Shown: one piece after another, positions 9,108-64,000 of the stretch
Numbering within the stretch: position 1 is the stretch's first letter
Layout of the letters: each line of letters begins with the position of its first letter
Assembly (NCBI GenBank): GCA_030390025.1
Contig: CM059432.1
Coordinates: 61,196,001 to 61,260,000, forward strand
Length of the DNA: 64,000 nt
Source of the DNA: Squalus acanthias
Taxonomy: Eukaryota
Direction: 5' to 3'
Program-made: the position numbers and the translations under genes
The notes under the pieces: model-generated
The model's database searches: none
Told to the model about the DNA's origin: nothing
What the model saw: the letters and a program-made list of their open reading frames with translations, nothing else

Positions 9108-9144
9108 AGTTAACGTTTCAGGTCAATGATCCTTCGTCAGAACT
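9108..9144 (-). ncRNA. Minimal type I hammerhead ribozyme motif (P1), one stem II mismatch
   Basis: Minus strand reads AGTT-CTGACGA-A-GGATC-ATT-GACCT-GAAA-CG-TT-AACT. Confidence 0.7.
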
Positions 9145-9442
9145 GGAAAAAGTTAGAGATGTAACAGATTTTCAAGCAAGTGCAGGTGCAGGGAAAGGGG
9201 GAGGGGAGGAAAGAACAAAAGGGAAGGTCTGTGATAGGGTGGAAGATAGGAGAGATTAAAAGACAAAAGGGATGATGGTGCAAGGCAAAAGGAGATGGTA
9301 ATGGGACAAGTTAAAAAACAAAAGATGACTCTAGATGAGGTGTAAATGGGAATGGCAGAATCATCAACAGCTGCCATGTGAAAAAAAAATAGGGGCAGAA
9401 GTTATGGTCTGAAATTGTTGAACTTGATGTTGACTCCAGAAG

Positions 9443-12400: not shown

Positions 12401-12619
12401 CATCCTGACTTGGAAGTATATCGCCGTTCTTTCATCGTCGCTGGCTCAAAATCCTGGAACTCCCTACCTAACAGCACTGTGGGAGTACCTTTACCACACA
12501 GACTGCAGCGGTTCAAGAAGGTGGCTCACCACCACCTTCTCAAGGGTAATTAGGGATGGGCAATAAATGCTGGCTTTGCCAGCGACGCCCACATCCCACA
12601 AACAAATTTTTAAAAAACA
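9443..12619 (+). mobile_element. Near full-length CR1/L2-group LINE (APE+RT, frameshifted) with tRNA-derived 5' head
   Basis: A box 9461-9471, B box ~9524-9535. APE start (NIWGL...IVILTESYL) at ~9880, RT at 10881-11835, C-terminus to 12553, then 3' UTR and an A-rich end. Confidence 0.88.
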
Positions 12620-12915
12620 GCTGTAAAGTGCCTAATCGAAAGATGAAGTGCTGTTCCTCGAGCTTACGTTGAGCTTCATTGGAACAGTGTAAGAGGCCGA
12701 GGACAGAGAGGGCAGAGTGGGTGTGGAGCGGCGAATTAAAGTGACAGGCGACCGGAAGATTGGGGTCACGCTTACGGACTGAACAGAGGTGTTCCGCAAA
12801 ATGGTCACCCAATCTGCGTTTGGTCTCCCCAATGTAGAGGAGACCTCATCGTGAGCAGCGAATACAGTATACTAAATTGCAAGAAGTACAAGTAAATAGC
12901 TGTTTCACCTGGAAG

Positions 12916-13682
12916 GAGTGAAGTGATGCATTTTGGTAGAAAGAATGAGGAGTGGACATATAAACTAAATGGTACAATCCTAAATGGGTGCATGAACAGA
13001 GAGACCTGGGGGTATGTGTGCATAAATCGTTGAGGGTGGTAGGGCAGGTTGAGAAAGCAGTTAAAAAGGCTTAAGGGATCCTGGGCTTCATAAATAGAAG
13101 TATAGAGTACAAAAGTGTGGAAATTATGATGAACACTGGTTCGGCCCCAATTGGAGTACTGTGTCCAATTCTGGGCACCACACTTTAGGAAGGCTGTGAA
13201 GGCCTTAGAGAAGGTGCAGAAATGATTTACGAGAATGATTCCAGGAATGAGGGACTTCAGTTACATTGACAGACTGGAGAAGCTGGGGTTGTTCTCCTTG
13301 GAGCAGAGAAGATTGAGAGGAGATTTGATAGAGGTGTTCAAAATCATGAGGGGTCTGGACAGGGGAGAAAGAGAGAAACTGTTCCCATTCGCAGAAGGGT
13401 CAAGAACCAGAGGACACAGATTTAAGGTGATTGGCAAAAGAACCAAAGGCGACATAAGAAAAAACTTTTTGCTCAGCAAGTGGTTAAGATCTGGAATGCA
13501 CTGCCTGAAAGGGTGGTGGACGCAGACTCAATCTTATCTTTGAAAAGGGAGTTGGATAAGTAGCTAAAGGAAAAAAAAATTGCAGGGCTACGGGGAAAGA
13601 GCAGGGGAGTGGGACTAGCTGAGAGTCGGCACGGGCTTGATGGGCCGAATGGCCTTCTTCTGTGCTGTAACCATTCTATGAG
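12916..13682 (+). mobile_element. CR1 3' fragment nested in Penelope P1
   Basis: LEKLGLFSLEQRRLRGDLIEVFKI and a CR1 3' UTR ending CCATTCTATG. Confidence 0.9.
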
Positions 13683-16322
13683 TGCTTGGGGCCCTGGACA
13701 GTGGGAAAGGAGGAGGCGCTTGCACGGGAAGGTGCCGTGGGAAGGGGAAGGGTTGTTGGGGGTGATTGAGGAGTGGACCAGGGTGTCGCAGAGGGAGCGG
13801 TACCTTCGTAATGCTGAAAGGGGAGGGGAAGATGTATTGGTGGTGGGAGGGGAAGAGGTGAGAGTAGAAGTGCAGGAAATAGAACGGACACAGTCGAGGG
13901 CCATGTCAACCACGGTGGAGGGGAATCTTCGGTTGAGGAAAAAGGAAGACATATCGGAAGCACTAGTATGGAAGGTGGCATCGTCAGAGTAGATGCGACG
14001 GAGACGAAGAAACTGGGAGAATGGAATAGAGTCCTTACAGGAAGCAAGGTGGGAGGAAGTGTAGTCCAGGTGGCTGTGGGAGTCAGTGGGCTTATAGTGA
14101 ATGTTTGTCAATAGCCTATCCCCATAAATGGAGAAAGAGAAGTCGAGGAAGGGAAAGGAAGAGACAGAAATGGACCATTTGAAGGTGAGGGAAGGGTGGA
14201 AACTGGAAGCAAAGTGAATGAAATTTTCTAGATCAGGGCAAGAGCAGGAAACGGCACCGAGACAGTCATCAATGTACCGGAAAAAGAGGTGAGGGAGGGG
14301 ATCTGAGAACAAAGAATGTTGCACATATCCCACGAAAAGGCAGGCATAGCTAGGACCCATGCGGGTTCCCATAGCAACACCTTTAATTTGGAGGAAGTGA
14401 GTGGAGTCAAAGGAGAAGTTGTTCAATGTGAGTATAAGTTCAGCGAGGCGGAGGGAGGGTGGTGGTGGATGGGGACTGGTTGGGCCTCTGTCCAAGGAAG
14501 AAGCGGAGCGCCCTCAGGCCATCCTGGTAGGGGATGGAGGCATCCTGGTAGGGGATGGAGGTGTAGAGGGATTGGACGTCCATAGTGAAAAGGAGACAGT
14601 TGGGGCCAGGAAACTGGAAACTGTTAAAGTGGTGGAGGGTGTCGGAAGAGTCGCGGATGTAGGTGGGAAGAGACTGAACAAGGGGACAAAAAATAGAGTC
14701 ACGATAGGAAGAAATCAGTTTGATGTGGCAAGAACAGGCTGAAATGATGGGTCTACCAGGGCAGTCCTGTTTGTGGATCTTGGGAAGGAGGTAGAAATAG
14801 GCTGTGCAGGGTTGGGAAACTATGAGGTTGGCAGCCGTGGAGGGAAGATCTCCAGAGCAGATGAGGTCAGTGACAGTCTTGGAAATGATGGCTTGATGTC
14901 CGGTAGTGCGGTCATGGTCCAGGGGGAGGTAGGAGGAGGCATCAGAGAGTTAGCGTTCAGCCTCCACAAGGTAGAGGTCGGTTCGCCAAACAACAATAGC
15001 GCCACCCTTGTCAGCAGGACATCAGCCGTCTCAATTTCTCTGCTCTTCTCCCTCACTCCAACCTACCTCCCTCTGAATTTGCAGCACTCAGTTCTCTCAG
15101 ATCCAACACCAGCATTGTCATTAAACCCGCTGACAAGGGTGGCGCCATTTCTGTCTCCATTTATGGCGATAGGCTATTGACAAACATTCACTATAAGCCC
15201 ACTGACACCCACAGCTACCTGAACTACACTTCCTCCCATCGCTTCCTGTAAGGACTCTATTCCATTCTCCCAGTTTCTCCGTCTCCGTCGCATCTGCTCT
15301 GATGATGCCACCTTCCATACTAGTGCTTCCGATATGTCTTCCTTTTACCTCAACCGAGGATTCCCTTCTACCGTGGTTGACATGGCCCTCAACTGTGACC
15401 GTTCTATTTCCCGCACTTCTGCTCTCACCCCTTTCCCTCCCTCCCAGAACCACGATAGGGTTCCCCTTGTCCTCACCTTTCACCCCACCAGCCTCCACAT
15501 TCAACGTACCATCCTCCGCCACCTCCAGTGTGATCCCACGACCAAACACATCTTCCCCTCCCCTCTCCTTTCAGCATTCCAAAGGGACCGCTCCCTCAGC
15601 GACACTCTGGTCTACTCCTCAATCACCCCCAACATCCCTTCCCCTTCTCACGGCACTTTCCCGTGCAAGCTCAGGAGATGCAACATCTGCCCTTTTACCT
15701 CCTCCCTTCCCACTGTCCACAGCCCCAAACACTCCTTCCAGGTGAAACAGCAATTGTACTTCCTACAATTTACTATACTGTATTTGCTGCTCACGATGCA
15801 GTCTCCTCTACATTGGGGATACCAAACGCAGATTGGTGACCACTTTGCGGAACACCTCCATTCAGTCCGTAAGCGTGACCCCGAGCTTCCGGTCGCCTGT
15901 CACTTTAATTCTCCGCTTCACTCCCACTCTGACCTCTCCGTCCTCGGCCTCTTACACTGTTCCAATGAAGCTCAACGTAAGCTCGAGGAACAGCACCTCA
16001 TCTTTCGATTAGGCACTTTACAGCCTTCTGGACTCAACATCGAGTTCAACAATTTCAGACCATAACCTCTGCCCCTATTTTTTTTTCACATGGCAACTGT
16101 TGATGATTCTGCCATTCCCATTTACACCTCATCTAGACTCATCTTTTGTTTCTTAACTTGTCCCATTACCATCTCTTTTTGCCCTACAACATCATCCCTT
16201 TTGTCTTTTAATCTCTCCTGCCTTCCATCCTATCACAGACCTTCCCTTTTGTTCTTTTCTCCCCTCCCCCTTTCCCTTCCCCTGCACTTGCTTAAAAATC
16301 TGTTACATCTCTAACTTTTTCC

Positions 16323-16359
16323 AGTTCTGACGAACGGTCATCGACCTGAAATGTTAACT
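16323..16359 (+). ncRNA. Minimal hammerhead motif (P1), degenerate
   Basis: AGTT-CTGACGA-A-CGGTC-ATC-GACCT-GAAA-TG-TT-AACT; the AACGTT palindrome and the first stem II pair are mutated. Confidence 0.65.
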
Positions 16360-16619
16360 CTGTTTCTCTCTCCACAGATGCTGTCTGACCTGCTGAATAT
16401 TTCCAGCATTTTCTGTTTTTATTACATTTTGGATACTACTTGATGCGTTGAACTTATAGAACCATAATTTTATTTACATTGCACAGCACATCTTTTTCCT
16501 CCCCTCTTCTCCAGAAAACATGAACATTCGAAATGATGGACAGGAAAAGATCAGATGGTCCATAGAGCCATTCCTATACTGTCATGATGTGACTCCCACC
16601 AACTGCACAATGAAATAAT

Positions 16620-18464: not shown

Positions 18465-20116
18465 AAGAAGACATAAGAATTAGGAGCTGGAGTAGGCCAT
18501 ACAGCCCTATGAGCCTGCTCTGCCATTCAATAATCATAGCCCCACAACTCCACTTTCCCGCCCGATCCCCATATCCTTTAATTACCCATAGAGTCCAAAA
18601 ATCTATCTATCTCAGCATGGAATATACTCAACGACTCAGCATTCACAGCCCTCTGGGGTAGAGAATTCCAAAGATTCACAACCCTGAGTGAAGAAATTCC
18701 TCCTCATCTCAGTCTTAATTGGCCGACCCCTTATCCTGAGACTATGCCCCCTAGTTCTAGACTCTCCAGCCAGGGGAAACAACCTCTCAGCAGCTACCCT
18801 GTCAATCCCCCTCAGAATCTTGTATGTTTCAATGAGATCACTTCTCATTCTTCTAAACTCCAGAGAGTATAGGCCCAATCTACTCAATCTCTCCTCATAG
18901 GACAACTCTCTCATCCCAGGAATCAATCTAGTGAATCTTCGTTGCACTGCCTCTTAGATAAGGACACTAAGGGCTGGATTTTACCAGCCCTGAGGAGGCG
19001 TGTCTAGAGGCGGGACTGCTGGGAAAATCCGCCTCCAACCAATATTCCCAGGAGTCGGGTCCCCGATTTGCGCAGGGTCCCGACTCCTAGAGGCGGGATG
19101 AGGATTACAGCCACTTAACTGCCTGTTAACAGATAGTTAACAGGCAGTTAAGAGGCTTTTTCCCATTTTTCCACTGTTGCTGCGGGCTTCCCAACATCGG
19201 GGAACCCCGCCAGGGTAAGTGAGGCCTGATGTGGGTCTACTGTAATTTTTGTGTATATCTGACAGCTGCAGAAGTGGTTTAAAGGATTCAATGAGACACT
19301 GGTGAGTATCAGAGGTAACGAAAAGTTATGAGAGTAATGTTTAATGTGTTTAGATGTTTCTGCAGGTGACAAGCTGTGAAGTGTTTGTGTAGGCTCATCT
19401 CATCGGGAGAAGTGACAGATGGCTTCTGCAATCTCAGCTGCAGCTGCCATCTGTTTTATCCTAAGGAGAGAGTAATTGGAGAGCCTGGGTTCAAGGGCTC
19501 ACCTTCGGACAGCGATTGTCAGTGTTTGACAGGAGCTCAATGTTGTCAAACACTGTCAAATCATCTGTCAAACAAGTGTGGTGCATATGCCTTTAAGAAA
19601 ACCGGCAGATGAAGCGTCATCAACTGATGTCATCTGACACCGGCTTTCCCTTAATTGGCCGGCAAGCCCACAGAGCGGCTTAACAAGGCCAATCAGGGGA
19701 AAATAGCATCAGCTCGTCAGACGTCGCTGGGGGCAGGACTGGAACCCGAAAACCAGCAGTCCCGCCTCGAACTCAGCCTTCCAGGTAAGATTCCGCCCTA
19801 AAACTCTGCACAGTACTCCAGGTGTGGTCTCACCAAGGCCCTGTACAATTGTAGCAAGACTTCCTTACTCTTGTACTTCAACCCCCTTGCAATAAAGGCC
19901 AACATGCCATTTGCCTTCCTAACTGCTTGCTGTACCTGCATGCTAACGCTCTGTGTTTTCTGTACGAGGGCTCCTAAATTTCTCTGAACATCAACATTTA
20001 ATAGAGTCTCACCATTTAAAAAATATTCTGTTTTTCTATTCTTCCTACCAAAGTGAATTATCTCATATTTCCCCACATTATACTCCATCTGCCACCTTAT
20101 TGCCCACTCACTGAAC
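18465..20116 (-). mobile_element. CR1 3' fragment interrupted by a MITE
   Basis: ORFs 19798-20178 and 18636-18947 are consecutive parts of the CR1 ORF2 C-terminus. Confidence 0.9.
18971..19798. mobile_element. Harbinger-type MITE
   Basis: TIRs GGGCTGGATTTTACC / GGTAAGATTCCGCCC; TSD TAA at 18968-18970 and 19799-19801. Confidence 0.85.
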
Positions 20117-25502: not shown

Positions 25503-26014
25503 TGAGAAGTCGCACAACACCAGGTTATAGTCCAACAGATTTATTTAAAGTTACAAGCTTTCGGAGCTATCGCCCCTTCTTCAGGTAAAATTACAATGAG
25601 TGAATCTACAAAAGTTCACAGAATATAAACACAGAAACTGCAGAGATACAATCTTTCCTTACATCAAAGACACACCAAGAGCACAGCCAAGACAATGAGA
25701 TGTGTCCCAGGGGGTCCAACGTGTCAAAACCTGCTGTCTGCAGTGTTTTTTTGGGTTTGTTTTTTGTGGGGGGTTTTTTGTGTTTGTTTTTTAAAAACTG
25801 GAAAGACAGACAACGATGTCAAGTCACGTTCTGTAGCGTGACATGAACCCGATATCCCTATTGAGGCCGTCCTCATGAGTGCGGAACTTGGCTATCAGTT
25901 TCTGCTCGATGATTTTGCGTTGTTGTGTGTCTCGAAGGCCGCCTTGGAGAACGCTAACCCGCAGATCCGAGGCTGAATGCCCTTGACTGCTGAAGTGTTC
26001 CCCGACTGGGAGGC
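25503..26014 (-). mobile_element. Penelope-like family P2 3' fragment with 12-bp TSD
   Basis: GIY-YIG C-terminus LPVGEHFSSQGHSASDLRVSVLQGG...EQKLIAKFRTHEDGLNRD; TSD AACTTTCTTTTA at 25491-25502 and 26015-26026. Confidence 0.88.
25551..25588 (-). ncRNA. Minimal type I hammerhead ribozyme motif (P2), intact core
   Basis: Minus strand reads TTAC-CTGAAGA-A-GGGGC-GATA-GCTCC-GAAA-GC-TT-GTAA. Confidence 0.8.
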
Positions 26015-30329: not shown

Positions 30330-31117
30330 AACCATATGTAGTTATTTGTGCCATTAACTCGTCTATTTTGTTACGAATGCTACGTGCATTCAGATAGAGA
30401 ACTTTCAAATATGCTTTGTGGCACTTAGTTCCTGCTTTTTCACTTTTTACCAGTTTACCTTTTACTCCACACACTCTGTCCCTTCCTGCCACGCTCTGAT
30501 TTGTGATTCCCCTACTGCTACCTATGTCTATTTTTATTTTTTGCTCTCTTGAAACCTCCCCCCCACTAATTAGTTTAAAGCCCTCTCCACAGCCCTAGTT
30601 ATTCGATTCGCCAGGACACTAGTCCCAGCACTGGCCAAGTGAAGTCCGTCCCAACGGAACAGCTCTCTCCTGCCCCAGTACTGGTGCCAGTGTCCCAAGA
30701 AGCAAAACCCATTTTTCCCACACCAGTCTTTGAGCCATGCATTCAACTCCCTGATTTTATTTACCCTAGCCAAATTTGCTCGTGGCTCAGGTAGTAATCC
30801 AGAGATTATTACCCTCGAGGTTCTGCTTTTTAATTTGGCCCCTAGCTGCTCAAACTCCCTCAGCAGAACCTCTTTCCTTGTCCTATCTATGTCATTGGTA
30901 CCAACATGGACCACGACAACTGGATCCTCCCCCTCCCACTCCAAGTTTCTCTCCAGCCCAGAGGAGATGTCCTTAACCCTGGCACCGGGCAGGCAACACA
31001 GCCTTCGGGACTCTCGCTCTTGGCTGCAAAGAAAGAACCCTATCTATCCCCCTAATGATACTATCCCCTACCACTACAACATTTCTTTTTACTCCCCCCA
31101 CTTGAATGGCCCCCCTT
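30330..31117 (-). mobile_element. CR1 ORF1 (SGNH esterase-like) and ORF2 start
   Basis: VVVVHVGTNDI...DGLHL in ORF 30570-30944; ORF2 APE start LYLNARSIRNK. Confidence 0.85.
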
Positions 31118-33000
31118 ACCACTGTTCTGCCCATCTGACCAACCCGTCTATATAGTCCTGTAGCCTGAGGCTTCCCTCCTCGCTATCTACCACCCCACCA
31201 ATTTTCGTGTCATCTGCAAACTAACTGATCATACCTCCTACATCCATATCTAAATCATTAATGTACACTACAAACAGCAAAGGACCCAGCACCGATCCCT
31301 GCGGTACACCACTGGACACAGGCTTCCAGACACAAAAACAACCTTCGACCATCACCCTCTGCCTCCTGCCACTAAGCCAATTTTAGATCCAATGTGCCAA
31401 GTTGCCCTGGATCCCATGGGCTTTTACCTTCTTGAACAGTCTCCCATGCAGGACTTTGTCAAAAGCCTTACTGAAGTCCATGTAGACCACATTAACTGCA
31501 CTACCCTCATCCACACACCTAGTCACCCCCTCGAAAAATTCAATCAAATTGGTCAGACATGATCTCCCCCTGACAAAGCTATGCTGACTATCCTTGATTA
31601 ATCCTTGCCTCTCCAAGTGGAGACTAATTCTGTCCCTCAGAATTTTTTCCAATAATTTCCCTACCACTGATGTTAGGCTCACTGGCCTGTAATTCCCTGG
31701 TTTATCCCTACTACCCTTCTTGAATAATGGTACTACGTTAGCTGTTCTCCAGTCCTCTGGCACTTCCCCTGTGGCCAGAGAGGTTCTGAAAATTTGTGTC
31801 AGAGCCCCTGCAATCTCCTCCCTTGCCTCACACAGCAGCCTGGGATACATCTCGTCTGGGCCTGGGGATTTATCCACTTTTAAGCCTGCTAAAACCGCTA
31901 GTACCTCCTCCCTCTCAATACTAATTTGTTCAAGTATATCACAATCCCCCTGCCTGATTTCTATGCCGACATCGTCCTTCTCCATAGTGAACACAGATGC
32001 AAAATATTCATTTAAAACCCCACCTACATCTTCTGGCTCTACACACAGATTGCCACTTTGGTCCCTAATGGGCCCTACTCTTTCCCTGGTTATCCTCTCG
32101 CCCTTAATATACTTATAAAACACCTTGGGATTTTCCTTTATTTTGCCCGCCAGTGTTTTTTCATGCCCTCTCTTCGCTCTCCTAATTTCCTTTTTAAGTA
32201 CCCCCCTGCACTTTCTATACTCCTCTAGGGCCTCCACTGTTTTTAGTCCTTTGTATCTGCCAAAAGCCTCCCTTTTTTCCCTAATCCATTCTCGTGTATC
32301 CCTTGACATCCAGGGTTCCCTGGGCTTGTTGGTCCCACCCTTGGCCTTTACGGGAACATGTTGGCGTTGTACTTTCTCTATTTCCTTTCTGAAAGACTCC
32401 CACTGCTCTGATGTGGATTTTCCTACAAGTAGCTGATCCCAGTCCACTTTAGCCAGATTCTGCCTTTCATATTAAAATCGGCCTTCCCCCAATTTAGAAC
32501 CTTTATCTCCGGTCCATCTTTGTCCTTTTCCATGACTACCTTAAATCTCACCGAATTATGGTCACTGTCACCAAAATGCTCTCCTACTAACACTTCTACC
32601 ACTTGCCCAGCTACATTCCCTAGAATTAGGTCCAGTACCGCCCCCTCTCTTGTAGGACTTTCTACATGCTGGCTCAAAAAGCTCTCCTGGATGCACTTTA
32701 AGAATTCCGCACCCTCTAAGCCTTTCATACTCTGACTATCCCAGTTAATATTGGGGAAGTTGAAATCCCCTACTATTATTACCCTATTATTTCTACACTT
32801 CTCTGAGATTTGCCTACATATCTGTTCCTCTATCTCCCCCTGACTGTTTGGGGGCCTATAGTACACTCCCAGCAAAGTGCTTGCCCCCTTTTTGTTTTTA
32901 AGTTCTACCCATATGGCCTCATTAGAGGAACCTGCTAAGATATCATCCCTCCTTACAGCAGTAATTGACTCCTTGATTAATATTGCGACACCCCCTACTC
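31118..33000 (-). mobile_element. CR1 ORF2 internal fragment (APE C-half and RT), 3' end missing
   Basis: ORFs 32423-33049 and 31383-32447; very similar to 56047-57860. Confidence 0.92.
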
Positions 33001-36740: not shown

Positions 36741-38979
36741 TCTATTACTTTCCTCTGACCACATCCCTCCTTCCAATCTCACCCTTTATCGTGTTTTCAC
36801 TATCCCCTCTGACCTTCCCCTCTCTGAACCCGAATGATCAGACCTCAGCAATGGCCTCAGCTTCATCCCTTACGCCCCCCCACCTCAACGAATTTCGAGC
36901 TCGACGAGATGCTGAGCTCTTCTTCCATCACCTTCGTCTCCGCACCCACTTCTTTGTCCAGACGTCTGCCCCCCGCACAGTGGACCCTTTCTCCCGTCTT
37001 CAGAACTCTCGTTCCACCTGGACCTCTCCCTCTGGCCTCTTACCTTCTCTTGATCTTTTCATTGGGAACTCAATTATTCTGCTCCCCTCACTCACTCTAA
37101 CTTACCTCCCTCTGAACTTGCAGCACTCCGTTCTCTCAAGTCTAACCCTGACACTGTCATTAAACCTGCTAACAAGGGCGGTGCTGGTATTGTTTGACGA
37201 ACAGATCTCTACCTGGTGGAGGCTGAACACCAACTTTCCGACACCTCCTCCTACCTCCCCCTGAACCACGACTCCACCACCGAACATCAAGCCATGGTTT
37301 CCCAGACTGTCACTGACCTCATCTCCTCAGGAGATCTTCCCCGCATAACCTCCAACTTCACAGTCCCGCAACCCCACACAACCCGCTTCTACCTCCATCC
37401 CAAGATCCACAAACCGGCCTGCCTGGAAGACCCATCATTTCAGCTTGTTCTTGCTCCACCGGAACATTTTTCTTCCTATCTCGACTCTATTTTTCTCCCC
37501 TTGTCCAGTCTCTCCCGACCTACATCCGCAACTCTTCTGACGCCCTCCGCCACTTTAACAGTTTGCAGTTTCCTGGCTCTAACCGTCTCCTTTTTACTAT
37601 GGACGACTGGTCCCTCTATACGTCCAACTCCCACCAGGACAGCCTGGAGGTCCTCCGCTTCTTCCTAGAAAGGAGATCCAACCAGTCCGCATTCACCACC
37701 CTCCTCTGCCTGGCTGAACTGATTATTACATTGAAAAACTTCTCATTTGACTCCACTCATTTCCTATAAATTAAAGGCATCACTATGGGAACACATAAGA
37801 GTCCAGCTACGTCTGCCTTTTTGTGGGATACGTGGAACATTCTTTGTTTCAGTCCTGCTCAGGTCCACTCCCTCACCTCTTTTTCCAGTACATTGATGAC
37901 TGTATCAGTGCCGTTTCATGCTCTCGCCCTGAACTAGAAAATGCCATCAACTTTACTTCCAATTTCCACTCCTCCCTTGCCTTCACATAGTCCATCTCCG
38001 TCTCTTCCCTTCCTTTCCTCGACTTCTCTGTCTCCATTTCTGGAGATAGGCTATCGACCAATATCTACTATAAGCCTACCGACTCCCACAGCTACCTTGA
38101 TCACACTTCCTCCAACCCAGTTTCCTGTAAGGACTCTATTCCATTCTACCAGTTTCTCCGTCACATCTGTTTTGACCTTGCCACCTTCCATACCAGAGCT
38201 TCCAATATGTCTTCCTTTTTCCTCAACCGAGGATTCCCCTCCACTGTGGTTGACAAGGCCCTCGACCGTGTCCATCCCATTTCCCACACTTCTTCCCTCA
38301 CTCCTTTGCCTCCCTCCCAGAACCACGATAGAGTCCCCCTTATCCTCACCCTCTACCCCACCAGCCTCCACAATCAACGGATCATCCTCCACCACTTCCA
38401 CGACCTCCAGCGCGATGCCACCACCAAACAAATCTTTCCCTCCCCTTTCAGCATTTCGACGGGACCGCTCCCTCTGCGACACCCTGATCTACTCTTCCAT
38501 CACCCCCAACACTGGTTCCCCTATCCCACGGCACCGTTCTGTGCAAACACAGGAGATGTAAAACCTGCGCTTTCACCTCCTCCCTTCCCACCATCCAGGG
38601 TCCCAAACACTGCTTCCAGGTGAAACAGCGATTTAGTCGCACTTCTTTCAATTAGTATACTGTATTCGCTGCTCACAATGCAGTCTCCTCTACATTCTCC
38701 GTCCCACTCTAACCTCTCTGTCCTCGGCCTCTTACACTGTTCCAATGAAGCTCAGAGGAAGCTCAATGAACAGCACCTCATTTTCGATTAGGCACTTTAC
38801 AACTTTCCAGACTCAACATTGATTTTAATAACTTCATATACATAACCACTGCTCCCATTTTTTCGGACAGCAGGTGCTGGTAATGGTTCTGCAGTTGACA
38901 TTTGCAGCTCCTCCATCCCCCATCATTAGTTTCTTTACTTATCCCATTACTATCCCTTTTGCCTTGCACCATCACCCTT

Positions 38980-45556: not shown

Positions 45557-45776
45557 TGGACAAATGTGAGAAGTCGCACAACAGCAGGTTATAGTCCAAC
45601 AGGTTTATTTGAAATCACAAGCTTTCGGAGCGCTGCTCCTTCGTCACTTCACCTGACGAAGGAGCAGCGCTCCGAAAGCTTGTGATTTCAAATAAACCTG
45701 TTGGACTATAACCTGGTGTTGTGCGACTTCTCACATTTGTCCACCCCAGTCCAACACCGTCATCTCCACATCATGA
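45557..45776. mobile_element. Mini Penelope P2 hairpin insertion
   Basis: 90-bp inverted arms 45557-45646 / 45654-45743 (one mismatch) plus a tail; TSD CTATATAATTGGA at 45548-45560 and 45777-45789. Confidence 0.92.
45649..45685 (+). ncRNA. Minimal type I hammerhead ribozyme motif (P2), intact
   Basis: TCAC-CTGACGA-A-GGAGC-AGC-GCTCC-GAAA-GC-TT-GTGA, with palindromic AAGCTT in place of stem III. Confidence 0.85.
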
Positions 45777-53454: not shown

Positions 53455-54825
53455 TTACAAAGCTACTTGGGAAAGTAAGCTGTGAGGAGGACACAAAGAG
53501 CCTGCAAAGGGATATAGACAGGTTAAGTGAGTGGGCAATAAGGTAGCAGATGGAGTATAATGTGGGGAAATGTGAGGTAATTCGCTTTAGTAGGAAGAAT
53601 AGAAAAACAGAACTTTTTTTAAATGGTGAGAAATTATTAAATGTTGGTGTTCAGAGAGATTTAGGTGTCCTCGTACAGGAAACACAGGAAGTTAGCATGT
53701 AGGTACAGCAAGCAATTAGGAAGGCAAATGGCATGTTGGCCTTTATTGCAAGGGGGTTGGAGTATAAGAGTAAGGAAGTCTTACTACAATTGTACAGGGC
53801 TTTGGTGAAACCACACCTGGAGTACTGTACACAGTTTTAGGGGGAAAAATTCAGTATCGCCCCTTTTGGTGCGCTAACGTCGCCGGGTTTAGCGCCCCAA
53901 AAACATTAGTGCCCCTCTGCCTGAAATTCAGTTGTAGCACCCCAAGAAGGAGGTGGAGCGCTACTGGAAGCGCTCCATCTCCTTCTTGGGGCGCTACAAC
54001 TGAATATCGCGGCGCCACGTACAACAGCGCTTTGTCATGTGCCATGCGTGTTGGCACATAGCGCCGCGTCATTGCCGGCCTCCCTCTCCTGATTAAAGGG
54101 GAGGGGCCTAGCGTTCCGGGGAGCGGGGTGCCATGAAAACAGCCTGGCACTCGAGGAGTGCAGGGCTGAGCGATCGCGGCCGGCACCCCGAAGAAAAAAG
54201 GGGAAGGAAGCAGGTGCTGGCAATCGGCCCCAAAAAATGGCTGTCCGACACCTGCCCTTTAAGTAGCGCCGCCGCGGCTGCAAAATCGCCACCCTGACCC
54301 TGTCGGACATATCGTCCGCTGATAGGTCAGGGGGTGCAACAAAGGTTCACTGGATTGATCCCTGGGATGAGTGGTTTGTCCTATGAGGAGAGATTGACTG
54401 GATTGGGCCTATACTCTCTGGAGTTCAGAAGAATGAGAGGAGATCTCATTGAAACATATAAGATTCGGAGGGGGATTGACAAGGGTAGATGCTAAGAGGT
54501 TGTTTCCCCCTGGCTGGAGAGTCTAGAACTAGGGGGCATAGTCTCAGGATAAGGGGCCATTTAAGACTGAGATGAGGAGGAATTTTTTCACTCAGAGGGT
54601 TGTGAATCTTTGGAATTCTCTACCCGAAAGGGCTGTGAATGCTCAGTCGTTGAGTATATGCAAGGCTGAGATAGATAGATTTTTGGACTCTAGAGGAATC
54701 AAGGGATATGGGGATCAGGCGGGAAAGTGGAGTTGAGGTCGAAGATCAGCCATGATCTTATTGAATGGCAGAGCAGGCTCGAAGGGCCGTATGGCCTACT
54801 CCTGCTCCTAATTCGTATGTTGTTA
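53455..54825 (+). mobile_element. CR1 3' fragment interrupted by a MITE
   Basis: Same subfamily as 18465-20116. Confidence 0.88.
53840..54340 (-). mobile_element. Truncated Harbinger-type MITE (family of 127-2852)
   Basis: One TIR GGGGGAAAAATTCAGT after TTA; the other end is lost by a deletion at a GTGCAAC microhomology. Confidence 0.8.
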
Positions 54826-55226: not shown

Positions 55227-57861
55227 CATAGAGTCATAGAGTTATACAGCACAGAAAGAGGCCCTTCGGCCCATCGTGTCCACACCGGCCATCAAGCCCT
55301 GTCTATTCTAATCCCATTTTCCAGCACTTGGTCCGTAGCCTTGTATGCTATGGCGTTTCAAGTGCTCATCTAAATGCTTCTTGAATGTTGTGAGGGTTCC
55401 TGCCTCTACCACACTTTCAGGCAGTGAGTTCCACATTCCAACCACCCTCTGGGTGAAAAAGTTTTTCCTCAAATCCCCATTAAACCTCCTGCCGCTTACC
55501 TTGAAACTATGCCCCCTGGTTATTGACCCCTCTACTAAGGGGAAAAGTTCCTTTCTATCTACTCTATCTATGCCCCTCATAATTTTGTACACCTCAATCA
55601 GGTCCCCCCTCAGCCTTCTCTGCTCTAAGGAAAACAACCCCAGCCTGTCCAGTCTATCTTCATAGCTGAAGCGCTGCAGCCCAGGTAACATCCCGGTGAA
55701 TCTCCTCTGCACCCTCTCCAATGCAATCACATCCTTCCTATAGTGTGGCGACCAGAACTGCACACAGTATTCCAGCAGTGGCCTAACTAGCGTTTTGTAC
55801 AGCTCCATCATAACCTCCCTGCTCTTATATTCTATGCCTCGGCTAATGAAGGCAAGTATCCCATATGCCTTTTTAACCACCTTATTTACCTGTCCTGCTG
55901 CCTTCAGGGATCTATGTACATGCACACCAAGGTCGCTCTGATCCTCTGTCCTTCCTTGGGTCCTACCATTCATTGTGTATTCCTTTGCCTTGTTAGTCCT
56001 CCCAAAATGCATCACCTCATACTTTTCAGGGTTAAATTCCATTTGCCACTGTTCTGCCCATCTGACCAACCCGTTTATATCGTCCTGTAGCCTGAGGCTT
56101 CCCTCCTCGCTATTTACCACCCCACCAATTTTCGTGTCATCTGCGAACTTACTGATCATACCTCCTACATTCATATCTAAATCATTAATGTACACTACAA
56201 ACAGCAAGGGACCCAGCACCGATCCCTGCGGTACACCACTGGACACAAGCTTCCAGTCACAAAAACAACCTTCGACCATCACCCTCTGCCTCCTGCCACT
56301 AAGCCAATTTTGGATCCAATGTGCCAAGTTGCCCTGGATCCCATGGGCTCTTACCTACTTGACCAGTCTCCCATGCGGGACTTTGTCAAAAGCCTTACTG
56401 AAGTCCATGTAAACCACATCAACTGCACTACCCTCATCCATACACCTAGTCACCCCCTCGAAAAATTCAATCAAATTGGTCAGACATGATCTCCCCCTGA
56501 CAAAGCTATGCTGACTATCCTTGATTAATCCTTGCCTCTCCAAGTGGAGACTAATTCTGTCCCTCAGATTTTTTTCCAATAATTTCCCTACCACTGATGT
56601 TAGGCTCACTGGCCTGTAATTCCGTGGTTTATACCGACTACCCTTCTTGAATAATGGTACTACATTAGCTGTTCTCCAGTCCTCTGGCACCTCCCCCGTG
56701 GCCAGAGAGGTTCTGAAAATTTGTGCCAGAGCCCCTGCAATCTCCTCCCTTGCCTCACACAGCAGCCTGGGATACATCTCGTCTGGGCCTGGGGATTTAT
56801 CCACTTTTAAGCCCGCTAAAACCGCTAGTACCTCCTCCCTCTCAATACTAATTTGTTCAAGTATATCACAGTCCCCCTGCCTGATTTCTATGCCTACATC
56901 GTCCTTCTCCATAGTGAACACAGATGCAAAATATTCATTTAAAACCCCATCTACATCTTCTGGCTCTACACACAGATTGCCACTTTGGTCCCTAATTGGC
57001 CCTACTCTTTCCCTGGTTATCTTCTTGCCCTTAATATACTTATAAAGCACCTTGGGATTTTCCTTTATTTTGCCCGCCAGTGTTATTTCATGCCCCCTCT
57101 TCGCTCTCCTAATTTCTTTTTTAAGTACCCCCCTGCACTTTCGATACTCCTCTAGGGCTTCCACTGTCTTTAGTCCTTTTTTTCCTAATCCATTCTCGTA
57201 TAGCCCTTGACATCCAGGGTTCCCTGGGCTTGTTGGTCCCACCCTTGACCTTTACGGGAACATGTTGCCGTTGTACTCTCTCTATTTCCTTTCTGAAAGA
57301 CTCCCACGGCTCTGATGTGGATATTCCTACAAGTAGCTGATCCCAGTCCACTTTGGCCAGATCCTGCCTTATCATATTAAAATCGGCCTTCCCCCCCCCA
57401 ATTTAGAACCTTTATTTCCGGTCCATCTTTGTCCTTTTCCATGACTACCTTAAATCTCACCAAATTATGGTCACTGTCACCAAAATGCTCTCCTACTAAC
57501 ACTTCTACCACTTGCCTGGCTATATTCCCCAGAATTAGGTCCAGTACCGCCCCCTCTCTTGTAGGACTTTCTACATGCTGGCTCAAAAAGCTCTCCTGGA
57601 TGCACTTTAAGAATTCCACACCCTCTAAGCCTTTCACTCTCTGACTATCCCAGTTAATATTGGGGAAGTTTAAATCCCTTACTATTATTACCCTATTATT
57701 TCTACACTTCTCTGAGATTTGACTACATATCTGTTCCTCTATCTCCCCCTGACTGTTTGGGGGCCTATAGTACACTCCCAGCAAAGTGCTTGCCCCCTTT
57801 TTGTTTTTAAGTTCTACCCATATGGCCTCATTAGAGGAACCTGCTAAGATATCATCCCTCC
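55227..57861 (-). mobile_element. Young CR1, 5'-truncated
   Basis: ORFs 57377-57886, 56355-57242 and 55308-56327, then a 3' UTR and tail. Confidence 0.95.
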
Positions 57862-59553
57862 AATGCAACTGGGTCCACCTTCCCAAGAATCTCCATATTC
57901 CAAGCCTTTTTGGACATCAAAGTTGTGCAGGGCAGAACAAGCTACCACTGTGCAGGATACATGTTCTGGGGCATATTGCAGAGCCCCTCCAGATCTAACA
58001 AAGCAGCAAAAGCACTCTTAAGACACCCATAGTTCCCTGAATTACCACTCTTGTAGAAATAGGTCATGTTATCATATTCCTCAGCTGCTAATCTTGCTCA
58101 CAGAGGGGCCCTGATCCATGGTTCATTTTGTCACCTACAAGCCATCTGGTTACTTTGCATTCTTCCTTGAAAATATCAGGGAGAGCAGAATTCCTTAGGA
58201 TAAATGCATCATGGCAACTTCCAGCAAATGAGGAACTGGCATACAGAATTCTTTGCATTTGGTCACCCATGATCTGTATATTCAGCAAGTGAAAGCCTTT
58301 TCTATTCAAAATGTTAGGGTATTCCTGTAAGAATTTGCAATGCTAGAGGAGTGCCATCTATTTCACCCTGCACTTTGGGGAACTCTGTCTTTATCATGCT
58401 GCTGCCTGCTATTCATACCAAACTGAATGAATTCTCCTGCTCTCCTAAGAATGGTGTCAGTGCCTTGACGAATAGAGCCACAGACAGCACCCTGAGCAAT
58501 ATTACGCAGGTTGTCTACGGCTACTTGAAATGAATCAAAGGCATAAAAGTTGAGTAAAAATTGAGAGGTCGCACAACACCAGGTTATAGTCCAACAGTTT
58601 TATTTTAAATCACAAGCTTTCGGAGTTAAAACTCCTTCAAGGAGTTTTAACTCCGAAAGCTTGTGATTTAAAATAAAACTGTTGGACTATAACCTGGTGT
58701 TGTGCGACCTCTCAATTTTGTCCACCCCAGTCCAACACCGGCATCTCCGCATCATAAAAGTTGAGTGCCATTGTAGCTTTCACTGCCACAGGCAGAGCCG
58801 CCGAGGCAGTTAATCTTGGCTGCAGGTCTTTATGCGAAAGATAGTTTTCTACAGTCTATTTGGTAGCAAGCACTCTTCTCAGACAGAGCTCCTTACTAAG
58901 GACCTGTGTGGTTGGCGAATTCTTTTGGTGGGGAAGGTGGGGGTGGTAATATTTTGTGCAGTGCATCCTCTTCAAATGCTGCCTTACCCTCCTTTTCTTC
59001 ATCCTATAATAATCCTCCTCCATTAAAATAGCAAACAAGGGAATACCCATTGGGAATCCCATAACTCAGAACCTCTTACTTTGTTGGGGTGGATAATTTT
59101 CCTGGTGGTCTCACAAGCCCTCAGGTCACCAGAGGCAGTGTCAGTTCTCTTAAGGTGTACAGCAAAAACATTTTCTCCAAATCCTCCCTTGTAAGCCCAG
59201 CAATTACTTTCTAAAGTTTCTCCAGGCTCCAAAGTAAAGCACTTCCACCACTATTAGCTTATGCTGGCAACAGATATGCCTCTTTTATCTCGTTGTGAAT
59301 AACCCTTGGTGTAATGGTGCGGTAATCACAGGATTTGGGAACTCCTATGCCATTCCAAATCACAAATACATTCTAATGAACTCCCAGCAGCACAAGCATA
59401 CACACTTATCAGAAGGCCCAGACCAAAATGGAAATGGCAGCACACCTTAAATGGGAATTAAGCTGTCTTAAATGGGATTCTCCCCAATTTGTAGGCCTCA
59501 AACTCCATTCAAGCACCATAGAATCACTGAAAAAGTCAAGCAAATTCAGGGCC
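57862..59553 (-). pseudogene. PIF/Harbinger element with decayed HARBI1-like transposase (coding ~59062 to 57862)
   Basis: ELCLRR, LPVAVKATMALNFY, NRKGFHLLNIQ, GSCHDAFILRNS, LVGDK, RSGGALQYAPEHVS..VVACSALHN. Candidate TIR GGCCCTGAATTTGC at 59540-59553. Confidence 0.85.
58556..58752. mobile_element. Mini Penelope P2 perfect hairpin insertion
   Basis: 81-bp perfect arms 58557-58637 / 58639-58719 plus a tail; TSD CATAAAAGTTGAGT at 58542-58555 and 58753-58766. Confidence 0.92.
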
Positions 59554-60214
59554 TAGGCATCGATTGGACAGTTCCAGTAACTGGTATTCCCAACACCTGT
59601 GTCCTGTTGCTGCTCCTGCAGATGATAACCCACTTTTTTCTTTCTACACTTTTCCTGCATCATGCACTGTCTCTTGAGTACAATCCAAAAACTCCTCAGT
59701 CTCCCTGATGCTGTAGTGTCACCATCTGCCCCTCAAACACAGAGATCCTTGTTGCAGAGGCTCAATTTTCTGGCACAGTAGCACTGAGGATCCATGATGG
59801 CCCACACATTGCACGTCACGGTTATCCCTCTACATCTAACTTAAAAACTAAGATATTGTTAGCCTGAACTCCCACTAACATCAAACTCTCACTAGGATCA
59901 AATCTGTTTACTTAACGCAAGTATTATAAAAAAAACCTGCTGTTCCACAGCACCTATGCCCCAATCAATCCTGTTGAGGCTAAACGCAACACTCTTCTGG
60001 CCTTTCGCACTCCACTCACCTCAGCTTGGCACTACCTCCTCTCCTAGCCACCACTTTCTTGCTCAACCCCTGTATCCACTCTCCATTCCTTCCCTCTCAA
60101 CCCTATTCTCCCCCAAGGTCAGGTGACCAAGTACCAGAGACATACTCACCCACACCTCATCACCTGCTTCAACCCTTCCCTTACCCAAACCACAAATCCT
60201 GACTATAATATTAT

Positions 60215-60716
60215 GGCCCGAAATTTCAGCAAAGGCGTTCACCGCTGGCCCCGACAAAAGCTGCCCACAGAGATCTCACGATCTCTCTATCTCTCTGGCG
60301 AGAAGTTTGCCTTTTTTGTTAATTTGATTTCAGTGCAGTGTAGTGGGAATTCCTTAGTGCAATCTGCTGTGACAGATTGTCTAAGCAGCCAATCACATTG
60401 CAAAATTCTCACAGACAGGGAACCAGGAAATGAGAAGCTGCTTTTATCCGGACTTTTTAAAAATGTTACAGAGAGCAAAACAAAGATTGGGGCTCTCACA
60501 TGGGGTAACAACGAACAGTGGAATAGCTCACGTTTTCGTCAGTTTCATGGATTTCACTAATTACGCTGATTGCCAGCTATGGGGATGGGGGGGAGGGGGC
60601 ACAATGCAGCCAATGTCGGAACAGAGAATGACCGCAACTTCAGGATTTCCGCGTTTAAATGCGCATGCGCTACATCCTGAAGTTGCGGTCAGTTTCAAAG
60701 GGGTAACAATGGCGAT
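60215..60716 (-). mobile_element. MITE fragment related to 33242 and 61262
   Basis: TIR-like GGCCCGAAATTTC and the shared GCAACTT...AAGTTGC internal inverted repeat. Confidence 0.55.
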
Positions 60717-61261
60717 ATAAAGAGGATCTACGCATTATAAAAGGATCTATTACATTCTCAAAGTAAAACATAAACAATTGTGTTCAGTTCCATTGTGCAC
60801 TCCTCCTGAAGTTCTATTATTACTCGTTTATAAAATGGAGAACCTCAAATCTTCAACTTGAAAGAAACAGCAGTTTCACAAATGTATGCATTTTCAAAAC
60901 AAATCACTAACCTATTTTTCATCTGATTTTTCTAATAAAGCTTGCATTTAAACAAGTATGTGGTACACACTGTAATTTGAATTTTGCTTCGTAATTGGTT
61001 CAGTCAACCGTTTTACTTTTACTTTGAAACTGTATCATGTAGTTAACTTTTGCAGCATCAGGCCTCTGGTGTGTTTATTGATGGCTCTGGTGGAGGCATG
61101 CACCTCCTATATCTGCACACCACTGCTTTTCGTGGCTGACAGAGCGATCATGTTCCAGGGCTGGAGTGAATGTCACTGGTCTCGTAGGATCCAACCTTGC
61201 ATATTTTTTTGTTGGGAGCTAATAATGGAGACATGGCAGATTGCCTTAAAATAAAAATATT

Positions 61262-62027
61262 GGCCCGGATTTTGTGTTAATAATAACGGTGAGTCTGTCA
61301 GCGCTCACCGTTATTATGGAGTAAATCCAACAGCAACTTCTGGAGTATGAACATACGCAGTTAAATGTGGAAATCCGGAAGTTGTGGTCTGAGTTACCCT
61401 GCTCCTCCACAGGCTGCACTATAACAGAACCTCACCGATAGACTCGGCACTGAAATACATGTAACGGTGTGAAGTTGGGGTACTTACCCACTAGTTACCC
61501 ACTAAACACACCAGAAAAAATTAGGGCTGGTGCATTCAGGAGTAAGTGAATTTTTAACGGCGTGATAAGTGATAATTACTGCCGAACAACCTCTCTGGCC
61601 CTGAAAATTTTATTTTCTAAGTGTGGAGTTTCATTCCTTCAGAAGTTAATTAGTGTTGGAGATTTAAAAGAAATTAAAATTAAAATAATGTTTTTACATT
61701 TTCTGTCTGTTTTATCTCTCTCTTAATCCCATCTTTCTTTCCCAATCTTTATTTCGCTTTCTGTACATGATTGAAATCTAATTTGTACTTCCTGGTTTAG
61801 ACTCTGCGTGTCTCAGTGAGGATTCTTCGACCTGATTGGTTGAAGAGCCTTACTGTCTCTTGCCTTGTTCACAGACGCCACAGATCCCCTGCAGAGGGCA
61901 CCGCACAAGATCAGACACCAGATCAGAGCAGGTCTCCGCTCCAAAGCCTGCGAAAAATTTGTGGGCAGCTGCCAGCATAATTAATGGCGAGCATCATTTC
62001 TTCGCCACTGACTGCAAAATCTGGGAC
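61262..62027 (+). mobile_element. Harbinger-type MITE
   Basis: TIRs GGCCCGGATTTTG / CAAAATCTGGGAC; homologous to 33242-33911. Confidence 0.75.
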
Positions 62028-62155
62028 AATATCACTGCTGCTGGGAAAGGTGCATTCATATTCATTAATCTGTACATCGGGACATTGACTGAATAGCATC
62101 CTTTGCATTTCAGATTTCATTATTGTGTGCAGGAATACATAGGGCTACACTTGAA

Positions 62156-62362
62156 GTGTCGACCGTGACTCAGTGGTAGCACTCATGCCTCTGAGTCAGG
62201 AGGTTGTGAGAATGAAGTCCCACTCCAGAGATTTTAGCACAAAATCCAGACTGATACTCCCAAGGGAGTGCTGCACCGTCGGTGGTACTTTTCAGATGCG
62301 ACATTAAACTGAAGCCCCCTTTTCCCTCTCAGGTGGAGGTAAAAGATCCCATGGCACTATTA
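62156..62362 (+). mobile_element. Deu-SINE 5' part
   Basis: tRNA-like head through AAAGATCCCATGGCACTATT. Confidence 0.75.
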
Positions 62363-63391
62363 GATTTAAACTCAGATTTAAATCCATCATCTGCTTTGAA
62401 AGTGGACCTAATTACATTAATACTAAAACATGTTGTGAATTATGGGTGACTAGACTTTTGACATTTAAGTCTTTTGGACATTTCCCAGTATTTTTATAGA
62501 GCTACATCTAAGCCTACTTATATTATGTATGTACTCTCGGATGTCTGCAGTAGAGTTTGGCTACAAATAAGGAAAATTAGTATTCCACTATACATCTGCT
62601 CTATAGATTCAATACGTTATGCAAGAGGCTAAGGAACAGGTAAATGAAATAGAAACTGTAGAAAGGAACTCAATTTAGGGAAATGAAGGAGGATGGAAAT
62701 CATCCACAAGTTATAATCCCTGCCATTGCATCCATATAGCAGACACTGCTAAATTTGATCTATGTTTGATATCATTAACATTGAAACTATGGGACAATGT
62801 CCTTAGAATGCTGGAAAGATGGTTAAGGAGATCTGTGCCTGTATCGAGGTCTCAATTAAACACTCAGGCCTCCTAGGGGGCACATTTCTCTAGAAACACC
62901 TAGTTTGACTGTGCGATGAAGATACAAGTGCAGAGGTGAGGAGAAGCCTTTACCACACTACACAATCAAAGAGCATGTTTGAAGTTATCTGTGGACATTG
63001 ATTTTAATAGTTCTGACCAGGTATTGCATTAATCTAGAGATAAATGGGCTGGGGCAGGAGAGAAAATTGGGGCTGGAATTAAAATTATAGACTTGACAGG
63101 TATAAATATTTTATATATCCATCATATTTTTAAGATTGGTAGCTCCTGTTAACTTTCCATTGAAAAGTTCTATGTCAACAGTCCCGATGGGGTTTTCAAT
63201 GTAATTTTATCCACACCTATGTTGTTACATCGAGTGATGCCTGCCCTGTCATGCTTTTCTCTCTGATGCTGGAATACTTTAAGAACTGTTTTCAGTCCAC
63301 ACGCAGTTGCAGGCTTTGGCCACCAAGTGTTACTGTAGAGCATTCTTTGTTTTGTCAAGGTTAATTGTAACCTCCACCTTGGTTTTCTATA

Positions 63392-64000
63392 GTGCGAAGT
63401 CGCACAACACCAGGTTATAGTCCAACAGTTTTATTTGAAATCACAAGCTTTTGGAGCTGCTGCCCCTTCGTCAGGTGAAGTGAAGGAATACGAATCAGCA
63501 AAGCATATATAGACAGAGAACCATGCCTGTGTAGCGTACAATGTCAGACGACTAGTTAATCTTTCTGACTGCCTTTTATCACACCTCGGCAGAGAAATAA
63601 TCAGGGTCAGTCAGGAAGGCATTATATCAAAGACATAGCAAGATACAACTAAGACAATGAGGTGGGGTCACAGGGGGTCTAATGTGTCAAATGCAGTCTG
63701 TATGGAAAACCATAAACTTTAAAATTTTTACTTTTATTTTTACTGGAAATCACATCTGTGAACAAGCCAACGACGACTCAAGTCTGGATGACTCTACGTC
63801 ATGTAGCGTGACATGAACCCAAGATCCCGGTTGAGGCCGTCCTCATGGGTGCGGAACTTGGCCAAGTTCCGCACCCATGAGGACGGCCTCAACCGGGATC
63901 TTAGGTTCATGTCACGCTACATGACGTAGAGTCATCCAGACTTGAGTCGTCGTTGGCTTGTTCACAGATGTGATTTCCAGTAAAAAAAAGTAAAAATTTT
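63392..64000. mobile_element. Penelope P2 head-to-head palindromic insertion, running off the window
   Basis: Minus copy 63392-63861; plus copy from 63862 with (A)KFRTHEDGLNRDLRFMSRYMT*. Hammerhead at 63441-63478 (-) with GAAA mutated to AAAA. Confidence 0.9.

Follow-up and report, generated by a model that had tools for sequence, protein, structure and literature searches.

Copy C, the insertion analysed here, is a hairpin of 197 nt (58556-58752) in a decayed transposase gene (Table 1); the window is the whole stretch of 64,000 nucleotides of DNA that was analysed. A scan for exact palindromes across all 64,000 bases showed that all 81 nucleotides of its left arm (58557-58637) pair with the 81 of its right arm (58639-58719) across a single cytosine at 58638, as had been claimed in a preliminary description of this DNA (perfect 81-bp arms and a 1-nt spacer). 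This cytosine prolongs the inverted arm to hammerhead position G8, and the G8/A9 junction is located inside the CUGANGA motif, in accordance with the further claim that the fold-back lies within the ribozyme core. When both strands of the whole window were searched, the 14-mer CATAAAAGTTGAGT was found only at 58542-58555 and 58753-58766, at the two ends of the insert, and the 14-bp target-site duplication reported earlier is therefore upheld. The last bases of the tail may extend into the CAT of the duplication.

The copy at 45557 lacks two variants that are present in both arms of copy C, GGAGTT-TT-AACTCC in stem II and TTGAGAGG at the end, again as described. Other copies in the window share some of the further differences between C and the 45557 copy; judged by these shared letters, some of the differences may mark a subfamily rather than private changes. 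The arms had been thought either to come from one template or to have been homogenised. Their identity at 81 of 81 positions supports the single template, whereas homogenisation was not needed, because identical arms and empty alleles elsewhere suggest a young insert; gene conversion was thus rejected as a necessary step for arm identity.

On the minus strand, the host frame reads MALNFY on one side of insert C and LNFYAFDSFQ on the other. One of the four host pieces scanned matched Pfam DDE_Tnp_4 (58091-58342, E 5e-7), and the other three gave no Pfam match. We take the DDE_Tnp_4 domain to denote PIF/Harbinger. The flanking frames and the domain match confirmed that a Harbinger transposase is interrupted at its ALNFY motif, as first noted. 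The host gene carries many stops and frameshifts, and since it was already in that state the insertion of C broke nothing functional. Two direct copies of 1.8 kb, 95% identical, lie at 31116-32952 and 56043-57861; the second ends beside the transposase remnant and its frames resemble a LINE endonuclease region.

Table 1. Positions of copy C, its parts, its host gene and its sister copies in the window
Feature	Position	Strand	Remarks
Sister copy A	25503..26014	-	Tail-less, 5'-truncated, no inverted partner; 12-bp duplication (25491, 26015)
Sister hairpin B	45557..45776	.	90-nt arms (1 mismatch), 7-nt spacer, tail, ~13-bp duplication
Decayed DDE_Tnp_4 (PIF/Harbinger-type) transposase remnant	57847..58855	-	Insertion at its ALNFY motif
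Left copy of 14-bp target-site duplication	58542..58555	.	Single copy in empty-site contigs
Extra A at left junction of hairpin C	58556	.	Matches neither arm nor target
Inverted tail-less copy of element 3' end, 81 nt	58557..58637	-
1-nt spacer (C), fold-back junction of hairpin C	58638	.	Within hammerhead core CUGANGA; overlap 0-1 nt
Direct copy of element 3' end	58639..58719	+	From hammerhead A9 onward
Minimal type I hammerhead remnant in C	58641..58666	+	Motif features per PMC4209133
One-sided 33-nt tail	58720..58752	+	Without partner on left side
Right copy of 14-bp target-site duplication	58753..58766	.
Sister hairpin D	63393..64000	.	469-nt inverted arm; right arm passes window end

Copies of the element in the window

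Four insertions of the element family, A, B, C and D, were found in the window. Copy A contains the last 61 amino acids of an ORF and an intact minimal hammerhead motif (core at 25584), and its last 67 nt are 91% identical to C. Hairpin B has a TCA overlap at its junction and an intact minimal hammerhead motif in its right arm (core at 45653). The tail of B continues into CATG(A) (45772-45776), and the first three bases of the duplication of C equal the same continuation (58750-58756). From these letters, the CATG(A) at the end of the B tail could be the start codon of the ORF, and the bases shared by tail and duplication in C could represent an overlap between primer and template.

The centre of hairpin D (63861/63862) has no spacer and is located within the last codons of the endonuclease frame, so that D folds back 469 nt from its tail-less end, about 380 nt upstream of the hammerhead core. 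On the minus strand of D, TATATA is found at 63511-63506 and is followed by an initiator-like TTCACTT of which the A is at 63481. Unrelated short inverted repeats with arms of 18-27 nt were noted at 53926-54005, 19109-19157 and 60629-60691.

Relationship to Penelope-like elements

Copies A and D extend into the end of the ORF. The 61 residues from copy A matched 27 proteins among 34 candidates, and all of those with a species name are from sharks. The best match, P0001, is identical to the ORF end of copy A at 55 of 59 positions. In a Pfam scan of four proteins, P0001 matched RVT_1 (E 5e-9) and its relative P0004 matched GIY-YIG (E 2e-5); P0001 gave no GIY-YIG match, P0005 matched weakly, P0006 matched no domain, and the 61-aa ORF end of copy A itself had no Pfam match. 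An ORF with a reverse transcriptase plus a GIY-YIG endonuclease at its C terminus is therefore documented for the family only, and C holds no ORF. A C-x4-C-x2-C linker precedes the nuclease in P0001 and P0006, which are relatives rather than the window's own protein. A CX2-5CxxC linker between reverse transcriptase and endonuclease defines Neptune/Nematis-type elements (PMC8557442), and the linker in the proteins of these shark relatives would assign the family to that type.

Insert C is almost certainly a Penelope-like insertion, as it has an adjacent inverted and 5'-truncated copy, a 33-nt tail on one side and a 14-bp duplication. It consists of the 3' end of an endonuclease-bearing Penelope-like element, present as an inverted tail-less piece and a tailed end piece, head to head.

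Six shark gene models (P0002, P0012, P0018, P0022, P0023 and P0024), which bear the names of host genes such as XRCC5, septin 5a and FAM204A, hold the ORF end of the element; they probably reflect errors of annotation or exonised copies. A further Penelope-like family, more remote from this one, was detected at 9041-16426 and 37096-38446 by tblastn, which matched P0001 at 25-38% identity on both strands; it has inverted arms of 402 nt (9041-9442 and 16025-16426) and hammerhead-like motifs at 9140 (minus strand) and 16327 (plus strand).

Empty sites and age of the insertion

Logan contigs from four of the 24 listed runs (X1, X5, X19 and X21) were compared with positions 58300-63861 at 85% likeness; runs with small word shares were left out. 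X1 and X5 are two samples, from two studies, of the best-matching organism (organism A); X19 and X21 are from organisms K and L. One contig of X1 (998 nt, depth 11.3) and one of X5 (843 nt, depth 13.7) link 58541 straight to 58753 with a single 14-mer. The long contigs of X19 and X21 start at 58753, and contigs of equal depth in organisms K and L cover 58485, which is 57 letters from the contig end; these contig ends imply that organisms K and L carry the same empty join. The suggestion made earlier, that an empty site be looked for in related species, is answered by these direct joins in X1 and X5 and by the implied ones in K and L.

Insert C is thus absent from at least one allele of the two organism A samples and apparently from two relatives, and the presence of only one copy of the 14-mer in the empty-site contigs shows that the duplication at this site is real. 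The matches listed from the assembled contigs of the four runs did not include the filled allele of C, and contigs drop variants. As it is missing from other sampled animals, insert C is likely to be young. An X1 contig extends into hairpin D as far as 63416, and the contigs of organisms K and L depart from the window at 63390, so that D is apparently absent from K and L.

The hammerhead motif

The hammerhead motif of the terminal repeat is whole in copy A and in the right arm of B, for which the predicted fold is a minimal type I hammerhead, and only its 3' part is found in C. The remnant in C comprises stem II (58641-58654), GAAA (58655-58658), a palindromic AGCU, a predicted cut at 58662/58663 and the 3' strand of stem I (58663-58666). 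Neither arm retains CUGANGA or the 5' strand of stem I, the inverted arm ending at G8 and the direct arm starting at A9. Since the fold-back removes the core from both arms, copy C has no ribozyme, and the possibility of a working one in this copy was rejected.

By sequence criteria, the G10.1-C11.1 pair, the extra base and the palindromic 15.2-16.2 are all present in the family motif. Stem II is paired in 30 of 30 cells of an alignment of six arms, which represent four insertions and so few independent sequences, and that of C has one two-sided change, from C-G to U-A. The predicted hammerhead fold (-11.6 kcal/mol) is no more stable than that of shuffled sequences (z -0.74). At the gathering score, Rfam gave no match in the 64 kb, and a pattern scan found none in viral contigs. 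The sole metagenome contig matched by the pattern, L001, was dismissed as a chance match that shares only the 20-nt pattern and reads as bacterial coding sequence.

Position of the fold-back junctions

Numbered by hammerhead position, the break of C falls at G8/A9 and that of B at U4/-6. Comparison of the two hairpins showed that their inverted arms end 4 nt apart (G8 versus U4), that their symmetry axes differ by 8 nt and that the starts of their direct arms differ by 15 nt (A9 versus -6). The proposal that the two copies fold back within about 6 nt of each other is thus approximate, being true of the inverted arms and exceeded by the axes and the direct arms. Two of the three hairpins in the window (B and C) break at hammerhead positions -6 to +10, and D does not.

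Among the 12 between-letter junctions listed of 275, four are fold-back junctions, all from X5, and the other eight are not fold-backs. In at least three distinct X5 junction sequences, the inverted arm ends at 63480/63481 (-3/-4) and the sequence restarts at about positions 7-10; the depths of these three are 507, 121 and 196, versus 14-41 for the long flank contigs. The fourth X5 junction has an inverted arm of 30 nt and a direct arm from about -2 (depth 234). Four of the 15 joints listed of 676 cross the centre of C, with arms of 49/49, 37/45, 46/41 and 69/40 nt; they are given as joint positions, without the intervening letters. The symmetric 49/49 joint (58605/58671) is present in X1 (depth 46) and X5 (depth 177). 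No opposite-strand joint inside arm D was found among the 15 of 676 joints listed. The junctions come from contigs at 85% likeness, the short arm of C biases which of them appear, and one of high depth may be a single event amplified within a larger repeat.

Judged by these results, short hairpins are a recurrent product, and their junctions probably favour several zones, of which the 5' edge of the hammerhead is one. There is some support for breaks that recur at the hammerhead, although a peak is not established. The recurrent size class proposed in the preliminary description is accordingly retained in part: B, C and at least three X5 junctions lie near the hammerhead, but D breaks about 380 nt upstream and other joints lie at 37-69 nt.

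Origin of the hairpins

We consider that insert C is best explained as a short head-to-head Penelope-like insertion made by twin priming (probability about 0.5). In this scheme, two target nicks staggered by 14 nt would each prime a DNA copy of one short RNA, one cDNA starting at the tail end and the other at an internal site 33 nt upstream, as does the anole element in vitro. The two cDNAs would stop at the same template position by running off the same RNA 5' end, after which their 3' ends would be joined end to end through an overlap of 0-4 nt and filled in. A promoter in the terminal repeat would start this RNA near hammerhead position -4, with TATATA 30 nt before an initiator-like A, and the combination of this start site with internal priming would by default give arms of about 80-90 nt. 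Read-through or broken RNAs would be the source of longer hairpins, D among them.

Twin priming with run-off would account for arms that are identical and equal in their ends, for a tail on one side only and for overlaps of a few nucleotides. In all three hairpins of the window, 0-10 nt of template separate the ends of the two arms, although arm length ranges from 81 to 469 nt, and the junction overlaps are 0-1 nt in C, 2 nt in D, 3 nt in B and 4 nt in the deepest X5 junction. As copy A is a tail-less insertion that occurs alone, with a 12-bp duplication of its own and no partner, the tail-less end can be a true start. For the Poseidon element of Anolis carolinensis (PAc), both target strands were nicked and extended in vitro, and two reverse transcription starts bound the tail (PMC11167929).

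With regard to the RNA start, the direct arm of B begins at -6 to -3, and 63481, the initiator-like A, is an end point of X5 junctions. A TATAWW located 27-33 nt before an initiator-like motif was found at 8 of 732 sites in the window, a post hoc figure, as the motif was noticed after the junctions. In rotifers, a pseudo-LTR was reported to contain a TATA and TCACT pair (PMC3846280). Against such a start, the promoter of Drosophila Penelope has no TATA and initiates about 120 nt ahead of the end of an intron (PMC2377424), which maps to helix I (PMC4209133). Several other findings argue against such a start or such a single end point. Copy C ends 12-13 nt inside the predicted start (G8/A9), so that trimming or an RNA of shorter length would be needed; the initiator-like motif of copy A is at -14 with a TATA spacing of 26, outside the 27-33 nt range tested; and the breaks are spread, as seen with the four joints at the C centre and the 30-nt X5 arm. 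We infer run-off as the mechanism of hairpin formation with a confidence that falls just short of even. That shark Penelope-like elements make a mini-class of hairpins of about 200 bp, by a promoter start at the first bases of the hammerhead, twin reverse transcription, run-off and joining, is a more tentative proposal that we regard as doubtful.

A self-priming fold-back would equally give equal arm ends and identical arms, for which it accounts directly. The cDNA started at the tail end would snap back, or be capped by a hairpin, and be copied towards the tail; an endonuclease or a bound protein would end the copying 33 nt short, and the preferred points would be fixed by short inverted motifs, namely CTTCA/TGAAG at the core and ATTT/AAAT beyond stem I. 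Self-priming was proposed for palindromes at inverted junctions (PMC3846280), the tail was ascribed to resolution by the endonuclease (PMC8557442), and the overlaps of 3 nt in B and of 4 nt in X5 (63480 to 58650), as well as the near-palindrome at 58605/58671, are consistent with it. However, the spacers of 0 (D) and 1 nt (C) appear too short for an intramolecular priming loop, and the hairpins predicted at the cDNA ends were no better than shuffles in all five cases tested (z -0.04 to -1.36). Moreover, copy A has a tail-less end without a partner, and the 469-nt arm contains short inverted stems of 4-6 bp at numerous points, which therefore do not single out the core. We judge self-priming to be rather unlikely.

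Alternatively, there may be no special class: arm lengths would simply be skewed towards short ones, and the hammerhead merely occupies nt 52-95 from the priming site. The chance that two of three axes fall within 8 nt of each other was P 0.06-0.21 under exponential and 0.02-0.10 under uniform models of length, the chance that two of three fall in nt 52-95 was P 0.03-0.19 under three exponential models, and other joints were found at 37-69 nt, all of which this explanation accommodates. On the other hand, P was 0.004-0.026 under the same exponential models for nt 78-95, a window chosen post hoc, and at least three distinct junction sequences have a common end at -3/-4. An absence of any class is, in our estimation, unlikely.

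In the preliminary description, the folded hammerhead was held to stall the reverse transcriptase or to cause a template switch, giving the size class. The breaks of two of the three window hairpins and of at least three multi-copy junction contigs at -6 to +10, and the stem II kept in six of six aligned arms (four insertions) with its C-G to U-A change in C, agree with this model. Nevertheless, an enzyme moving 3' to 5' meets stem I and then stem II, and has passed through them by the time it reaches the breaks, which are located 5' of stem II, within the single-stranded core or before it. The stability of the fold is ordinary (z -0.74), hairpin D breaks about 380 nt upstream, and the inverted layout is shared by Penelope-like clades that lack canonical hammerheads (PMC8557442). 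Catalytic mutants of the anole hammerhead left the insertion size in vitro unchanged, although such mutants may retain the fold (PMC11167929). Stalling is thus poorly supported and improbable, and run-off is the likelier reason for ends at the hammerhead edge because the breaks lie beyond the stems.

The insert could also be the remnant of a longer insertion, ordered as inverted repeat, repeat, ORF, repeat and tail, in which the two direct pseudo-LTRs recombined. Full-length units of this form have been described (PMC3846280, PMC2377424) and the product would look alike, but the identical arms and the empty allele suggest that the insert is young, which would leave a second event little time to occur, and no longer allele was found among the matches listed; we regard this origin as highly improbable. 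Self-cleavage of the ribozyme would create an RNA 5' end where run-off sets the fold-back point. The 49/49 joint in X1 and X5 lies 8 nt past the predicted cut, but self-cleavage predicts arms of 57 nt, those of C (81 nt) and B (90 nt) include sequence upstream of the cut, and the anole element showed no RNA ends at the cut (PMC11167929), which makes it very improbable indeed.

An assembly or chimeric-read artefact, suggested by the contigs of four runs that show or imply the empty site and by the lack of the filled allele among the matches listed, is extremely improbable, since a fold-back chimera gives no continuing flanks, duplication or one-sided tail, whereas here the insert is bordered left and right by unique sequence that carries on, stands between two exact copies of a 14-mer present once in the empty allele and, like B, has a tail at one end only. 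Fold-back DNA transposons and MITEs have inverted repeats at both very ends and a duplication of fixed length. Such an identity was rejected for C, given the one-sided tail of 33 nt and duplications that measure 14 bp in C, about 13 bp in B and 12 bp in A; it is also contradicted by centres that differ between copies.

Insert C is a dead and ordinary by-product in an already dead transposase gene, with a layout that was already known. It could serve as a presence/absence marker, and its value is that of a clean record of Penelope integration. If a size class set by RNA starts is real, the points at which tens of thousands of copies fold back would form a fossil map of template RNA 5' ends, and this map would decide between twin initiation and self-priming. 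Should perfect palindromes of this type be as numerous as contig depth implies, they could be relevant to assembly and to hairpin RNAs.

Comparison with known elements

In a typical Penelope-like insertion, an inverted 5'-truncated copy lies beside a direct copy, with palindromes at the junction (PMC8557442, PMC3846280, PMC2377424), and a one-sided tail has been described (PMC11167929, PMC3846280). Like the canonical endonuclease-bearing units, C has a tail of 30-40 nt at one end and belongs to a family with duplications of variable length; unlike them, it has no ORF, its arms are only 81 nt and its junction is inside the hammerhead core (Arkhipova et al. 2013, PMC3846280; Craig et al. 2021, PMC8557442). 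Among the mainly open-access papers searched, none was found to report that junctions peak at the hammerhead's 5' edge.

The likeness to PAc includes the two reverse transcription starts that bound the tail, the nicking and extension of both strands, the AT-rich target and a hammerhead about 80-115 nt upstream of the reverse transcription start sites (Frangieh et al. 2024, PMC11167929). The difference from this Poseidon element is that the nearest full protein, P0001, has the C-x4-C-x2-C linker that marks Neptune/Nematis and not Poseidon (PMC8557442).

Copies A and B resemble the minimal type I hammerheads of metazoans in having CUGANGA, one extra base before stem II, G10.1-C11.1, a palindromic AGCU that replaces helix III and a stem I of 4 bp (Cervera and De la Pena 2014, PMC4209133). 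Dual hammerhead motifs located close together on opposite strands were noted in metazoans in the same work. In contrast to the hammerheads described there, C lost the 5' core from both arms, and position 17 is U in the window copies (PMC4209133).

Finally, C shares with non-LTR retrozymes that it is short, non-coding, Penelope-derived and hammerhead-related (bioRxiv 10.64898/2026.07.22.740005). Retrozymes are head-to-tail tandems with a whole hammerhead per unit (bioRxiv 10.64898/2026.07.22.740005), whereas C is a head-to-head pair without a whole hammerhead, and its classification as a retrozyme was rejected.
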